Shown one piece after another: positions 7,336 to 64,000 of a DNA stretch of 64,000 nucleotides (position 1 is the stretch's first letter; each line of letters starts with the position of its first letter). A program made the position numbers and the translations under genes. Below the pieces are notes generated by a model. It did no database searches and had not been told where the DNA came from. It saw nothing but the letters and a program-made list of their open reading frames with translations. The DNA is from an uncultured Gemmatimonadales bacterium (GTDB lineage: Bacteria > Gemmatimonadota > Gemmatimonadetes > Longimicrobiales > RSA9), in assembly GCA_963708135.1 (NCBI GenBank), contig OY970192.1:3954529-4018528 (forward strand), written 5' to 3'.

Positions 7336-8688
<1,353 letters not shown>

Positions 8689-27687: not shown

Positions 27688-27889
27688 GACAGTGCACGTC
27701 CTGGTCGATCGTTTCCGGAGTACGGTCAGCACCGAGCCGGGTCCGTCGTCGGGCTCTCTCGCGCGGAGGCGCGGGAGGTCCGCGGCGGCGCGGAGGATGC
27801 CATGAGTTCACCGCGACTCCGCGGGCCTCCGCGTCCCTGTGAGAGACAGGCACCCCGGCGGTCTCGGGAACGCGCGTCGTCGGACCCTC

Positions 27890-40572: not shown

Positions 40573-40944
40573 CGAGCCTCGCAACAAAGATCCCGCCCTT
40601 TCGGGTATCTTCGGGATCCCCGGCGCGCTCCCCGACAAGCCTGCAAGCTACTTCCAGTCCACGATTTGAGCCTCCGTTCCATCACCTCCCCGGCACCGGG
40701 AACGTGCCTTGCCCCACCGCCGGGCCGGGAGTGACGAAGCTCCCTGACAGTGCGGAAGCGACGCAGCTTCGCAACAAGACATGGACGCTGCTCAGAGCAA
40801 AGCCGCCGAAAGGCGGTGGCGCAGAGCCACGGGGCTACAGCGGTTCAGGCCGCCATGTCCGCCGGGCCGCCAGCGATTCGACACCATCGTCGAGGCTGGT
40901 GGCCCGTTGCGTTACCGGCCCGACCGCACCCGGAGGAGTGATCC

Positions 40945-41091
40945 ATGGGCAGTGCAGTCGGAATCCTCCTGATGTTGTGCCTGCCCCTGATGGTGAGCTT
41001 CATCGTCATCTGCCTCACGGCCGCGAAGGCGCTCTACAACGAGCAGGAGCGCCTGGTCACGCTCTCACGGAGCGAGGCAACGACGAGCTGA
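40945..41091 (+). CDS. Small hydrophobic protein (48 aa), below the ORF-track cutoff
   Basis: The ATG at 40945 lies 7 nt after GGAGGAG. It encodes MGSAVGILLMLCLPLMVSFIVICLTAAKALYNEQERLVTLSRSEATTS, one TM helix plus a polar tail. Third codon positions are GC-rich like the host genes. Confidence 0.4.
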   Translation: MGSAVGILLMLCLPLMVSFIVICLTAAKALYNEQERLVTLSRSEATTS

Positions 41092-41349: not shown

Positions 41350-42346
41350 TCAGGCGCGGCCGCGCCGGTCCTGGAACCAGCGAACGGTCGGGGGCAGCCC
41401 TTCGTCCAGGCAGCGGGGCGTCCAGCCGAGTTCGCGCGTCGCCTTGTCGTGGGAGTGGAGCCAGCGCAGCCCGGCCGCGGTGGCGGCGTTCTCGCGCGAG
41501 ATCGGAAACCGAAGGCCGGTGGCGCGGGAGAGCACGTCCAGCAGGACGCCGGTCCAGCGGACGAGTGGAGCCGGAAAGCGCAGGCGCGGCGGCCGCTTCC
41601 CGGCGAGTGCCACCACGCGGCCCGCGAAGTCGTCCAGCCTGGCGGGCTCGCCCGAGAGGACGTAGGTCTCCCCAGCCACACCGCGCTCGCCCGCCGCGAG
41701 GAGTCCATCCACCACGTCATCCACGTGGACGTACGAGAACCAGGAGGGGATGGAGCGGGAATCCGGGGATCCGTCCCGCCAGCAGGTCCTTCACGAAGCG
41801 GCCGTTCGGCCCCTCGTCTCCGGGCCCGTACACGTTGGCCGGCGCCACGATCACGACCGGAAGCCCCCGGCGCTGGGCTGCCACCGCGAGCCGGTGCGCC
41901 GCCGTCTTCGTCCGCTCGTATTCGGAGGTGAAGCGCGGGCCGTGCTCGGAGCCCTCATCTCCCTCGCCCGCGGCCACAGGTCCGAGCGCCACGGTAGTCG
42001 AGACGTGGACCACGCGCGCGGTGCCGGCGCCCTCGATGGCCGCCAGGAAGACGCGCGTTCCCTCGACGTTCGTGCGCCGCATCGCCGCCGCGTCCACCAC
42101 GCCGATGTCGTAGTACCCGGCCAGATGGTACGCCAGCTCCGCGCCGGCGAGGCCCCGCGCCACGGCCGCCTCGTCCCATGTCTCCCCGACGAACAGCTCG
42201 GCGCCCAGGCGCTCCAACTCGCCGGTCCGCGAGGTGGGCCTCACCAGACAGCGCAGCCCGGCCCCTCCCTCCGCCAACCGGCGGGCCAGCCGCGTGCCGA
42301 TGAACCCCGTCGCCCCCGTCAGAAACACCAGCCGCCGGTCCGCCAT
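41350..42346 (-). pseudogene. NAD-dependent epimerase/dehydratase (SDR) family, frame broken by one extra base
   Basis: The N-terminal frame reads MADRRLVFLTGATGFIGTRLARRL...YERTK...GRIPGFPLHP. The C-terminal frame reads SWFSYVHVDDVVDGLLAAGERG...TRELGWTP. Removing one G from the run at 41746-41749 gives GFPLHPSWFSYVHVDD. Confidence 0.8.
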
Positions 42347-42898: not shown

Positions 42899-42928
42899 GG
42901 ACCTGCGTAACGACGCAGGTCCTTTTTT
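42899..42928 (+). terminator. Canonical intrinsic terminator (or attenuator) upstream of csp
   Basis: GGACCTGCGT, loop aacg, ACGCAGGTCC: a perfect 10-bp stem followed directly by TTTTTT. It lies 110 nt upstream of the csp ATG. Confidence 0.8.
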
Positions 42929-43037
42929 CATGCGTGGGCCGCCGACGCGGACGGGCGGTGGATCGGTCCGAGGGTACGGGACATCGCACCGTCCCCGTGA
43001 CAGGTTTCCAGTCCAGTTCTACTCAGGAGCAAGGGCG

Positions 43038-43340
43038 ATGGCTCGCACCACAGGCACCGTGAAATGGTTCTCGCAGGAGAAGGGCTACGGGTTTCTCCAG
43101 CGGGAGGGCGGACCGGACGTGTTCGTGCACTACAGCGCGATCGAGGGCTCCGGCTTCAAGGTCCTCTACGAGGGGGAGGAGGTGGAGTTCGACGTCGTCG
43201 AGGAGGCCAAGGGCCCCAAGGCCGCGAACGTCGTCCGCCTGAACCCGCCCGCCGAGGCCCCGCGCCGCGGTGGCGAGAGCCGGCCCGGCGGCACGGGCCG
43301 CGGCGACTACAGTGCCGGGCGCGGCGAGCCCCGCTACTAG
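43038..43340 (+). CDS. Cold-shock domain protein with C-terminal Arg/Gly-rich extension
   Basis: 100 aa from the ATG at 43038 after [35 protein letters not shown] carries the RNP1 and RNP2 motifs. The tail reads [26 protein letters not shown]. Confidence 0.9.
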
Positions 43341-43504
43341 TGGACCGCATCTGAAGTTCGGTGAGCACCGAGCCGGCGGAGCGGGCGCGAAGCGCAAGGC
43401 GCGAGGAGGAAGGAATAGCAGCGCTATTTCGACGACGAGCAACGCGGCGGGTCGCGTCCGATCCGCCGGCGAATGCCATCGCTACTTCGGATACGGTCCA
43501 CTAG
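43337..43504 (+). other. 168-nt element closed by a 21-bp long-range inverted repeat with nested helices (structured RNA or MITE-like element)
   Basis: CTAGTGGACCGCATCTGAAGT (43337-43357) pairs with ACTTCGGATACGGTCCACTAG (43484-43504), with 1 mismatch and 1 G-U. Nested inside are TCGGTG-ag-CACCGA (43358-43371), GCCGGCGGA (43372-43380) with TCCGCCGGC (43462-43470), GGGCGCGA (43383-43390) with TCGCGTCC (43452-43459), and AATAGC-agc-GCTATT (43414-43428). Confidence 0.4.
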
Positions 43505-43549
43505 GGCGCCCCCGCAGCGACCACCGTCTTTCGTCCAGCGCGCGGACAG

Positions 43550-43586
43550 GCGCCCGCGAGGCCACGCCTCGCGGGCGCTTCGTCTT
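43550..43586 (+). terminator. Intrinsic terminator candidate downstream of csp and the structured element
   Basis: GCGCCCGCGAGGC, loop cac, GCCTCGCGGGCGC: 13 complementary positions. TTCGTCTT follows. Confidence 0.6.
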
Positions 43587-43619
43587 GCGCGCACGGCCCC
43601 GGTCCGCTCCTTTGCGCCC

Positions 43620-45059
43620 ATGGATGACGACGCTGCCTCCCGGCGCCCTGGCGCGCCCCTCGAGATCGACCCCGAGCGAATGCGCCGCATGGGCTACGAG
43701 GTCGTGGACTACTTGGTCGAGCGCGTTGCCGGACTGGACGCCGACCGCGCGTGGAGCCGGCGCGACCGCGCCGCCCTGGCACCCCACCTCTCCGGCCCGG
43801 CACCCGAAGGGCCGACCGGGTTCGAGACCCTGCTCCGACAGTTGCGCGATGACGTGCTCGCCTTCACTGCGCGCATCGACCATCCCCGCTTCATGGCTTT
43901 CGTCCCCGGCGCCGGCACCTGGCCGGGGATCCTCGCGGACTTTCTGGCGGCCGGGCACAACGTCTTCCAGGGGACCTGGCTTGCGTCCTCCGGTCCCAGC
44001 GCCGTCGAGTTGGTCGTCCTCGACTGGTTCCGCACCTGGCTCGGCTGCCCCGAACAGGCCGCTGGTCTCCTCGTCAGCGGAGGCTCCGCCGCCAACCTGA
44101 CCGCCCTCGCCTGCGCCCGCGACAGCCGCCTCGGCGGCCACGATCCCGACGCCGTGATCTACGCCTCCGACCAGGTCCACTCCTCCGCACTGCGAGCCGC
44201 GCGCATCCTCGGCTTCAGGCCAGAGCAGCTGCGCGTCCTCCCCGCCGACCAGGCGTTCCGCCTCCCCGTCGCCGCCCTCGAGGCCGCGATCGCCGCCGAC
44301 CGGGGCGCCGGCCGCCGGCCGTTCCTCGTCATTGCGAGCGCGGGCACCACCAGCACTGGCGCCGTGGACCCGCTCCCCGAGCTCCGGCGACTCTGCGATG
44401 CACAGGATCTCTGGCTGCACGTGGACGCAGCCTACGGCGGCTTCGCGGTCCTCACGGAGCGAGGCCGCGCCGCGCTGCCTGGCATCGGTGCCGCCGACTC
44501 CATCACTCTCGATCCACACAAGTGGCTGTACCAGCCGTTCGAGGCCGGCTGCCTCCTCGTCCGCGACGGGGCCGCCCTCGTCCAGACCTTCCACGTCATG
44601 CCCGACTATCTCCAGGACACCGCCGTGGGCGGGCGGGAGGTCAATTTCGCCGACCGCGGCCTGCAGCTGACCCGCGCCGCTCGCGCGCTGAAGATCTGGA
44701 CCTCCATCCGCCACTTCGGTCTGGATGCCTTCCGACGCACCATCGATGGCTGCATCGATCTCGCGCTGCACGCCGAGGAGGTCATCCGCCGGACCCCCTC
44801 GCTCGAGCTGCTCGCCCCCGCCGCCCTCGGCGTGGTCTGCTTCCGCCGGCGCGGCGCGCCGGGCCAGGATGAAGCGGAGGTCGAGGCTGCCAATGCGGCG
44901 CTGCTCCGCCGCATCCTCGACAGCGGCCTCGCGATGGCCTCCTCCACCCGGCTCCGCGGAATCTACGCGCTGCGTCTCTGCATCCTGAACTTCCGGACGA
45001 CCGAGGCCAATGTGGACCGCGTCCTGCATTGGTTCGCCGGGGCGGCGCTGGAGGAGTGA
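43620..45059 (+). CDS. Pyridoxal-dependent (group II, aromatic-L-amino-acid type) decarboxylase
   Basis: 479 aa from the ATG at 43620. Motifs: HPRFMAFVPG, SGGSAANLTALACAR, LHVDAAYGG, and ITLDPHKWLYQP (PLP lysine). Confidence 0.9.
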   Translation: MDDDAASRRPGAPLEIDPERMRRMGYEVVDYLVERVAGLDADRAWSRRDRAALAPHLSGPAPEGPTGFETLLRQLRDDVLAFTARIDHPRFMAFVPGAGTWPGILADFLAAGHNVFQGTWLASSGPSAVELVVLDWFRTWLGCPEQAAGLLVSGGSAANLTALACARDSRLGGHDPDAVIYASDQVHSSALRAARILGFRPEQLRVLPADQAFRLPVAALEAAIAADRGAGRRPFLVIASAGTTSTGAVDPLPELRRLCDAQDLWLHVDAAYGGFAVLTERGRAALPGIGAADSITLDPHKWLYQPFEAGCLLVRDGAALVQTFHVMPDYLQDTAVGGREVNFADRGLQLTRAARALKIWTSIRHFGLDAFRRTIDGCIDLALHAEEVIRRTPSLELLAPAALGVVCFRRRGAPGQDEAEVEAANAALLRRILDSGLAMASSTRLRGIYALRLCILNFRTTEANVDRVLHWFAGAALEE

Positions 45060-61971: not shown

Positions 61972-62221
61972 CACGTCCCGATACACCAACAAGGACCTGC
62001 AACCCGAACAAGGAGCCCCCGTCCCGCACAGCGGAGCCCAGCATAGCGAAGTAGCGGAGTGACCGCGACCTATGTCCTAGCCGAGGTCGACGTGATCTCC
62101 GAAGGGAGGTGAGCTGGGTGTTCCTTCAGGCGCTATTTGAGCTCATCGGCGCACTAGTTGCGCTTCTTGGCGGCGGTATCACCATCGCAAACTAGCGTCG
62201 GGCGGGGGCTCCTCCTTCTGT

Positions 62222-63544
62222 ATGAACCGAAAAGGTCAATTCTTCTTCTGGGCGGTTTTGGTGGCAGCAGCAGCTTTGCTGCTGCCCCTGCCGTGGCGTG
62301 CGTTTTGGCTCTCGACTCCGCGCGAGATCCTCGGTCTCGCCACATTTGTAGGGCTTGCTGTGCTGTCGGAAGCCATGGCCATCGGCTTCACGTTCGGTGC
62401 GTCAAAGTCCAACGCATCCATTTCGTTCGTTCCGTTGCTGGCAGCGGTCGTGGTATTCCCGCCAGTGTTTTCGGTATCGGCTGCGGCCGTTACGGTATTT
62501 GTGGCAGAGGCCTTCTTGCGGCGCCGCCCTGCGTGGCTAACAGCATTCAACACCGGCCAGTACATATTAGGGTATGGAACCGCGGCGCTCATCTACTCTT
62601 GGCTTGCGCCCGGAGGCGGCGGAGACATCAGTCTGATAGCGTTCTTACCCGCCGCGCTGGCGTTTTTCTCGGCCAACCTTTTTATTGTTTCGGGATTTGT
62701 CTCCGTTCGGCGCGGTGAGAGTCTCATTGAAACCGCCCGCCAATTCGCAGGGCCGTCCGGCGCGAATCTGTTTTATGACTTTCTTGCCACACCAACAGCG
62801 CTTTTTGCGGCCTATTTGTACACCAAGTTCTATGTGGCCGGATTATTCCTGTTCATCTTGCCATTTCTGTTAATCCGCTATTCGTTTATCTCGAAGATTC
62901 GACTGGAACAGGCCAACCGGGACCTAATTCGGGTCCTGATTAAGGCCATCGAGACCAGGGACCCCTATACATCTGGGCATTCGGTTCGGGTTTCGACGTT
63001 GGCGAAGATGATAGCGGAGGACCTTCATCTCTCGAAACGAAGGATTTACGATATCGAGACAGCGGCGCTACTACACGACATCGGTAAAATTGAGGCGCTC
63101 TACGCGGACGTGATAAGTAAGCCGTATTCGCTATCTGATACTGAACGGGCATTAATCCGGACCCATGCGACCAAGGGCGCTGACCTGCTGCACGGCCTCA
63201 GCGCCTTTGGCCCTGAGATCATCAAGGCGGTCCGTCATCATCACGAGCGATTTGACGGACAGGGTTACCCCGACGGCATCTCGGGCGCCGCGATACCGCT
63301 TGCCGCAAGAATTATCATGTTATGCGATTCCATAGACGCAATGCTGTCGGATCGCCCCTACCGATCCGCTCTAACCGTTAACGCTACTTACAACGAGATA
63401 GTGCGATGTTCTGGCACTCAGTTTGACCCCGACATAGTCGAGGTGATCTTACGCAGAGATACGCTCAGGCGTGCGGCAGGCTTGGCTGAGGCGGAACCAA
63501 CTAGACAGGCGTCCCTTACGGCAGCCGCCGCTGAGCCAGTCTAG
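62222..63544 (+). CDS. Membrane-anchored HD-GYP domain protein (putative cyclic-di-GMP phosphodiesterase)
   Basis: 440 aa. The N-terminal ~230 aa are multi-TM. HD-GYP motifs: DPYTSGHSVRVS, LLHDIGK and HHHERFDGQGYPDG. Composition is about 50% G+C with many A/T-ending codons, unlike the rest of the window. Confidence 0.85.
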   Translation: MNRKGQFFFWAVLVAAAALLLPLPWRAFWLSTPREILGLATFVGLAVLSEAMAIGFTFGASKSNASISFVPLLAAVVVFPPVFSVSAAAVTVFVAEAFLRRRPAWLTAFNTGQYILGYGTAALIYSWLAPGGGGDISLIAFLPAALAFFSANLFIVSGFVSVRRGESLIETARQFAGPSGANLFYDFLATPTALFAAYLYTKFYVAGLFLFILPFLLIRYSFISKIRLEQANRDLIRVLIKAIETRDPYTSGHSVRVSTLAKMIAEDLHLSKRRIYDIETAALLHDIGKIEALYADVISKPYSLSDTERALIRTHATKGADLLHGLSAFGPEIIKAVRHHHERFDGQGYPDGISGAAIPLAARIIMLCDSIDAMLSDRPYRSALTVNATYNEIVRCSGTQFDPDIVEVILRRDTLRRAAGLAEAEPTRQASLTAAAAEPV

Positions 63545-63593
63545 AGGCGGCGACAGCGAGCTCTACATCTGGGAGGATAGCGGAAATTGCGGA

Positions 63594-63902
63594 ATGGACA
63601 TCAGCGACTTTGAAGCATACGCCGCCCTTAAGGGCGACGAAACCCTCCGCGTGCGGCCTGATCGCACCGCCTTGCTTGTTGTCGACATGCAGCGGTATTT
63701 CGTGGAACCTGAGTTCCCGTTCGGCCAAGTCTTAGCCAAGTTTCAGCCTGACGCAGCGGCTGCGTATTTCGACCGTGTCAAAACTACCGTAGTTCCAAAT
63801 GTCCAGGAATTGCTCAAGCCCATCTTGAACAGTTTGGAAGGGGTACGCGTCCGAAAGCCGTTGTGCCGCAACAATCCGACCGCCGCCGCCGCCGATCTGT
63901 AG
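63594..63902 (+). CDS. Isochorismatase-family (cysteine hydrolase) N-terminal fragment or short homolog
   Basis: 102 aa. RPDRTALLVVDMQRYFVEPE is the typical N-terminal strand and motif. The ORF stops after a GCC-repeat, far short of the usual ~180-200 aa. It may be truncated or frameshifted. Confidence 0.4.
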   Translation: MDISDFEAYAALKGDETLRVRPDRTALLVVDMQRYFVEPEFPFGQVLAKFQPDAAAAYFDRVKTTVVPNVQELLKPILNSLEGVRVRKPLCRNNPTAAAADL

Positions 63903-64000
63903 TGCCACAGAGTGCACCCCTAGACTCGCCCGTAAAGCAGGCTAACAACATTGCATCAGCGCCGGTCCACGCGTAGCTTGCCGTAGTGCTCCAACCGGCG

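Follow-up and report, generated by a model that had tools for sequence, protein, structure and literature searches.

The locus examined here lies within a stretch of 64 kb (64,000 nt, hereafter the window) that has a G+C content of 71% and whose closest named protein homologues belong to Gemmatimonadota, mainly to Longimicrobiales MAGs. A cold-shock protein gene (csp) occupies positions 43038–43340 on the plus strand and encodes 100 amino acids, comprising a cold-shock domain (Pfam CSD, E = 7e-27) and an Arg/Gly-rich tail. It is followed in plus-strand order by a 168-bp imperfect palindrome at 43337–43504 (hereafter the element), by the intrinsic terminator of csp at ~43549–43590, situated 45 nt 3' of the element, and by a gene for a PLP-dependent decarboxylase beginning at 43620. 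Further neighbours are of a housekeeping type, including an epimerase, PaaA/C-like proteins, an ABC/FtsX permease, an HlyD-type protein, a YggX-like protein and a HAD hydrolase. In the partly annotated window, no transposase, reverse transcriptase or integrase was seen among the genes scanned at csp and at an osmC-like gene considered below.

Several other features of the window were recorded. The csp leader contains a terminator-like hairpin at 42899–42931 (GGACCTGCG...CGCAGGTCC followed by a T-run), ~115 nt 5' of the start codon, which is kept in six of six aligned loci (the window, L041 at ~8420–8460, L042, L009, L010 and L011) and resembles an attenuator of csp. A c-di-GMP-I riboswitch was identified at 40786–40874 on the plus strand by a whole-window Rfam scan at gathering scores (57.6 bits, E = 1e-8); the only reading frame 3' of it encodes 48 amino acids (40945–41091), has no Pfam match, is convergent with the epimerase gene and was called as a gene in a Logan contig. 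Towards the end of the window (~62000–64000) the G+C content drops abruptly from ~71% to 57%. This region holds six of the 20 CTAG sites of the window and encodes a 440-aa membrane protein whose C-terminal half resembles an HD-GYP-type domain by eye, and it may be a horizontally acquired island.

The element is bounded on the plus strand by a left terminal inverted repeat (CTAGTGGACCGCATCTGAAGT, 43337–43357) and a right terminal inverted repeat (ACTTCGGATACGGTCCACTAG, 43484–43504), each 21 nt long. The initial annotation had described these arms as standing 126 nt apart with one mismatch and one G-U, and they proved real: 19 of the 21 positions are Watson-Crick pairs, the other two being a C/A mismatch and a G-U. 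With up to three mismatches allowed, the 21-mer arm occurs at just two sites in the window, which are the arms themselves, against an expectation of 0 by chance. Folded as RNA, the 168 nt reach −102.8 kcal/mol compared with −64.7 ± 4.4 kcal/mol for dinucleotide shuffles (z = −8.67), none of the 200 shuffles being as good, and the corresponding DNA fold is −57.1 kcal/mol (z = −7.25). The predicted structure is a near-continuous rod of 62 base pairs with a mean pair probability of 0.98. In a larger context (43300–43600) the rod and the terminator fold independently, and the separate terminator reported earlier downstream of the element is borne out.

Parts of the fold proposed in the initial annotation were recovered in the MFE structure, namely a 9-bp helix, an 8/9-bp helix and the apical AAUAGC/GCUAUU hairpin. 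The last of these is an 8-bp hairpin at 43412–43430 on the plus strand (GGAAUAGC-AGC-GCUAUUUC), beneath which ~20 nt on each side are poorly paired, being purine-rich on the 5' side, where they include GAGGAGGAAGG, and mixed on the 3' side. Other parts were not recovered. The perfect 6-bp hairpin placed at 43358–43371 would have a loop of 2 nt and has a pair probability of ~1e-4, and the 13 nt on the 3' side that had been taken as unpaired are mostly paired with this same 5' segment. Nor does the element start inside the stop codon, as had been proposed; it begins at the last base of the preceding Tyr codon, and the stop codon TAG (43338–43340) forms bases 2–4 of the element, which are paired with CUA at 43501–43503 in the predicted fold. 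The asymmetric-bubble layout as a whole comes to −81.0 kcal/mol versus −102.8 kcal/mol for the rod.

This difference of 21.8 kcal/mol bears on the resemblance to 6S RNA that had been pointed out on the basis of this layout. The element is indeed similar to 6S RNA (Rfam RF00013 and relatives) in its length of ~170 nt (168 nt here) and its long closing helix, and in these respects only; unlike 6S RNA, it is matched by no covariance model, lacks both a central bubble and a promoter-like site of its own, and is not conserved. The pairs that define the bubble have probabilities of ~1e-4. At gathering scores the Rfam scan of the whole window gave nothing on the element, and at E ≤ 10 no 6S or other family overlapped it in the interval 43000–43700, where only cspA-thermoregulator and terminator-like matches were found elsewhere, in keeping with the earlier remark that sequence evidence for the 6S family was lacking. 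The cspA thermoregulator match (RF01766) is sub-threshold (26.8 bits versus a threshold of 78) and covers the 5' UTR and coding sequence at 43000–43246. Furthermore, the element is absent from the five syntenic csp loci of relatives described below, although 6S RNA is broadly conserved. Each 6S feature that was tested speaks against the analogy, and we consider a 6S RNA, or a 6S-like RNA that binds RNA polymerase, to be a most improbable identity for the element.

Other known classes were likewise rejected. The element is followed by GGGCGCCCCC and not by a U-tract, and the actual terminator is the one at 43549–43590, so the element is not itself an intrinsic terminator. Its ends read CTAGTGG...CCACTAG and lack the R''/R' core sites of an integron attC (RYYYAAC ... 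GTTRRRY), and its neighbours are housekeeping genes, with no integrase among those scanned. A retron msr-msd RNA was discounted, as the downstream gene encodes a PLP-dependent decarboxylase and no reverse transcriptase was present among the neighbours scanned. The candidate small-protein gene, a 47-aa ORF with a GTG start at 43361–43504, has no homologues.

The element was compared with csp loci on three metagenomic contigs (L009, L010 and L011) and two Longimicrobiales MAG contigs (L041 and L042). The gene order epimerase / small hypothetical gene / csp / (decarboxylase) is kept in all five. In each of these loci the csp stop codon is followed by a corresponding terminator within ~20–60 nt, whose homology to 43549–43590 is plain to see in L041 and L042 (GGGCGCCCGCGGGG...CCCCGCGGGCGCC TTCGT...). 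The 168-nt element is absent from every one of the five, which indicates a lineage-specific insertion in the csp 3' UTR; the conservation in relatives that the initial annotation had associated with a functional RNA is not seen at these loci. Excision of 43341–43504 from the window leaves ...CGC TAC TAG GGCG... (TACTAGGGCG), an intact gene end. The nearest decarboxylase homologue is merely 66–67% identical and the relatives with an empty site are accordingly distant, so that absence dates the gain only loosely and both the time and the mode of origin are loosely constrained.

The same comparison yielded some additional observations on this region. In L041 (9006–9746) and L042 (9012–9752), csp and the decarboxylase are separated by an extra gene for a 246-aa membrane protein that matches no Pfam family; its absence from the window marks the csp–decarboxylase intergenic region as a site of recurrent gain or loss. 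In both of these MAG records csp is uncalled, although it is found by tblastn. The element contains an ATG (43473–43475) that is in frame with the decarboxylase and gives an ORF of 528 aa; the decarboxylase on record for the source contig has 456 aa and a far later start, and the insertion could mislead start-codon prediction.

Logan contigs of run ERR11718636 are 99.8–99.9% identical to the window. One of these (L001), from a near-identical strain, carries the same csp followed by 40 nt of the element before the contig ends. Given that the csp/element junction is present in this independent short-read contig, and that the palindrome is imperfect, an assembly artefact is excluded. For the 3' half in the near-identical strain, no exact records were found for the decarboxylase or the YggX-like protein. 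L001 has TC in place of CT at 43351–43352 (TCTGAA to TTCGAA), and the GG opposite is paired in either version, through C-G plus U-G or through U-G plus C-G. The other three substitutions between the window and the Logan contigs (41152, 42104 and 28295) are all G in the window versus A in Logan within a C[G/A]AYG context, a pattern more suggestive of bases miscalled systematically in one of the assemblies, for example in connection with methylation, than of true polymorphism. We therefore give little weight to the CT/TC difference. The window also has one extra G in a G-run at 41746 relative to L001, within the epimerase gene (41350–42346, minus strand), which splits a 331-aa epimerase into ORFs of 124 and 209 aa and reflects either a pseudogene or an assembly error.

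The composition and the ends of the element offer further indications of its origin. Its G+C content is 65%, falling to 53–59% in the terminal 34 nt, versus 71% in the window. The tips are CTAGTGG...CCACTAG, an end type that can be written GTGGACCGCAT... or (CTA)GTGGACCGCATYYGAAGT, with TA inside CTAG at both. The left CTAG (43337–43340) contains the csp stop codon TAG, and it and the right CTAG (43501–43504) are candidate copies of a target-site duplication of either TA or CTAG. CTAG is its own reverse complement, and the flanking CTAGs may therefore represent the outermost 4 bp of the inverted repeat instead of a duplication. The tetramer is rare in this DNA, with 20 sites in the window compared with 167 expected from base composition (an eight-fold depletion), and several of these sites coincide with TAG stop codons. 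No other CTAG-bounded palindrome was found in the window or in the relatives.

These ends, together with the internal structure, can be set against the idea that the palindrome was made in place, by an inverted duplication of the csp 3' UTR through template switching or hairpin-mediated repair, and is immobile and functionless. Such an event would agree with the single full copy, with the lack of a family in any collection searched and with the exact centre of symmetry at AATAGC-AGC-GCTATT. Complementarity is unevenly distributed, however: the outer 54 nt are ~90% paired, the next ~20 nt per side are essentially unpaired, and a perfect apical hairpin follows, which is not what a single duplication and neutral decay would predict. 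Moreover, neither arm has a counterpart in the 3' UTRs of the relatives, arm sequence is present elsewhere in the window (see below), and the rare CTAG is found exactly at the ends. We judge formation in place to be improbable.

The search for further copies revealed a solo fragment at 27701–27740 on the plus strand, 13 nt after the stop codon of the osmC-like gene. Detected by blastn, it aligns without gaps and in the same orientation to bases 1–40 of the element, with an exact 17-mer core (GGTSAGCACCGAGCCGG); similarity begins at the element boundary and ends after base 40. Its Smith-Waterman score is 22, compared with 14.2 ± 1.3 (maximum 20) for dinucleotide shuffles of the query, none of 200 of which scored as high, and nhmmer gave weaker values (E = 0.04–0.15). 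No inverted partner was found for the fragment, and it does not fold comparably (z = −1.9). We read it as a probable decayed fragment of a related element; a 3'-UTR motif shared by the two genes is a possible alternative. The earlier statement that the window holds no second copy thus stands for full copies: a single-sequence covariance model run over the 64-kb window with filters off returned no other copy, only generic terminator hairpins below 18 bits. It fails for partial ones, and the tally is one full copy and one 40-nt fragment in 64 kb.

Beyond the window, we searched with a 22-nt core pattern (AGTWCGGTSAGCACCGAGCCGG) that fits all three known instances and needs 20 exact bases. Its seven matches in 185,579 species genomes were all due to chance, located in unrelated coding sequences with no extended similarity, as were four matches in JGI metagenomes, again within coding sequences. 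Viral contigs gave no match to the tip pattern, 24 chance matches to the core pattern and none to a two-tip gapped pattern, and blastn against plasmids produced two short spurious matches only. A chimeric six-frame translation, aimed at copies hidden under called ORFs, found nothing at E ≤ 0.1 among 5.8 billion proteins. Neither the window nor the genome and metagenome pattern scans contained an insertion sequence with matching ends. As the scans depend on 20 exact bases, they would miss a low-copy family that has diverged by 10–15%.

The explanation that we favour, and to which we give about half of our confidence, is that the element is a non-coding, MITE-like palindrome, orphan or low-copy, that inserted at the stop codon of csp and now forms part of the 3' UTR. 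The alternatives listed in the initial annotation included a MITE with 21-bp terminal inverted repeats, and this is the part of its interpretation that fits best, the likeness to 6S RNA having fallen away. The element is short (168 bp) and non-coding, with no protein resembling any of its reading frames; its terminal inverted repeats are 21-nt arms identical in complement at 19 of 21 positions; and an empty site is present in all five comparison loci, distant as these are. Both the structure and the inverted repeats are far beyond chance. The low-G+C ends, the TA/CTAG tips, the insertion relative to orthologues and the degenerate fragment elsewhere in the window are best accommodated by an origin of this kind. 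Against it, the several dispersed copies that define a MITE family were not seen, with no other full copy in 64 kb and no family in the collections searched, and there was no transposase among the neighbouring genes scanned.

Under the MITE-like interpretation, a short non-autonomous transposable element, or the remnant of an internally deleted insertion sequence, would have integrated at the TA of a CTAG composed of the csp TAG stop and the final base of the Tyr codon before it. Since CTAG/TA sites are scarce in this DNA and several are located at TAG stops, a transposase targeting TA or CTAG would tend to be directed towards gene ends. Duplication of the target would have restored the stop codon, so that the csp reading frame stayed intact. 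Some IS5/IS701-type elements duplicate a 4-bp CTAG. IS630 is described as inserting at TA within CTAG (Tenzen & Ohtsubo 1991, as cited in PMC2170065). The two types fit equally well as the parent. Duplication of either TA or CTAG would regenerate the stop codon, as seen.

The properties of the element are comparable with those of several bacterial repeat families. Bacterial MITEs are typically <200 bp, with terminal inverted repeats and terminal TA, and their long RNA stem-loops affect neighbouring mRNAs (PMC2229807). The Correia/NEMIS elements of Neisseria are co-transcribed with adjacent genes and fold into long hairpins that are cleaved by RNase III, altering the stability of neighbouring mRNAs (PMC2229807). 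They resemble the element in size (100–160 bp), long terminal inverted repeats, TA tips and intergenic location near genes. The left tip TAGTGGA also occurs in the Correia repeat, although a 7-mer may be shared by chance. The Correia elements differ in being A+T-rich and present in hundreds of copies, as opposed to one full copy and one fragment in 64 kb here and none in the other public collections searched, and in showing no extended sequence similarity to the element, for which RNase III cleavage is putative. RUP, Nezha and other MITEs derived from IS630/Tc1-mariner insert at TA and have TA at both ends, and the TA-in-CTAG target of IS630 is the context of the element; they differ in that the genes and scans searched yielded neither an IS630-family transposase nor an inverted repeat matching that of the element. 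ERIC and YPAL (RU-2) of enterobacteria, which are read into mRNA along with the adjoining genes and influence its stability (PMC2229807), are likewise imperfect palindromes over their whole length, 127–168 bp in size and not A+T-rich. They belong to a different phylum, have no sequence similarity to the element and are multi-copy families. A text search of the literature for MITE and Gemmatimonadota, limited to these two words, found no description of such elements in the phylum, and we know of none.

Regardless of its origin, the element is located upstream of the conserved csp terminator, and we infer that it is transcribed within the csp mRNA. There it would form the 62-bp rod with the stop codon buried at its base. 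By analogy with Correia/NEMIS and ERIC, which are described as affecting adjacent transcripts through RNase III or through transcript stability (PMC2229807), this double-stranded RNA may act as an RNase III substrate or as a block to 3' exonucleases, and could as a result change the half-life of csp mRNA. The effect would be stronger in the cold, where the rod is predicted to be more stable (−144 kcal/mol at 15 °C versus −103 kcal/mol at 37 °C). A role in 3'-UTR stability may be seen as a present-day consequence of a MITE-like insertion, with which it is compatible.

A stronger claim is that the rod is a lineage-specific functional RNA of the csp 3' UTR kept by selection because it governs how stable csp mRNA is or how it is processed, for instance as an RNase III site or as a barrier to PNPase/RNase R that varies with temperature, whatever its origin, an exapted insertion included. 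This and the MITE-like insertion are not mutually exclusive. Besides the location within the transcribed 3' UTR ahead of the conserved terminator and the predicted gain in stability at low temperature, it would account for the plus strand folding 12.5 kcal/mol better than the minus strand. However, this asymmetry is small, and the G-U counts of the two strands are similar (4 and 5), so that selection on the RNA cannot be clearly read from the sequence alone. The sole inter-strain polymorphism within the element, CT to TC at 43351–43352, maintains pairing with GG, but may be a base-calling artefact. A second stress-type gene (OsmC family) is likewise followed, in the same orientation, by the 40-nt relative, but this lacks a comparable structure. 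With no conservation at the five orthologous loci and no matching Rfam family, we regard selection on the rod as rather unlikely. A more specific version is more doubtful still. In it, the rod, which pairs the stop codon and is predicted to gain stability steeply in the cold, would be a selected thermosensitive switch that sets csp mRNA decay through an exonuclease block or RNase III, and a small 3'-UTR regulon of stress genes would be marked by the 40-nt motif shared with the osmC-like locus.

Also considered was a small RNA derived from the 3' UTR that would be released from the csp mRNA as the element plus terminator (~250 nt) and act in trans. Its position between the stop codon and the terminator would suit such an RNA, as would an unpaired purine-rich segment (GGAGGAAGG) near the apex. 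The remainder is almost fully double-stranded and leaves little seed sequence, the element is not conserved, and it has no promoter-like site of its own, which together make a trans-acting small RNA very unlikely.

If the MITE-like interpretation is correct, its practical use is to keep the element from being labelled a conserved RNA, 6S-like or otherwise. The element would also represent a clean case of a very G+C-rich genome steering a TA/CTAG-targeting element to a TAG stop codon, by which a highly expressed stress gene gained a new and extremely stable 3'-UTR hairpin. As MITE-type elements are, as far as we are aware, undescribed in Gemmatimonadota, a confirmed family would be a small addition to knowledge of this phylum; the finding would be of greater importance only if the hairpin alters the fate of csp mRNA with temperature.
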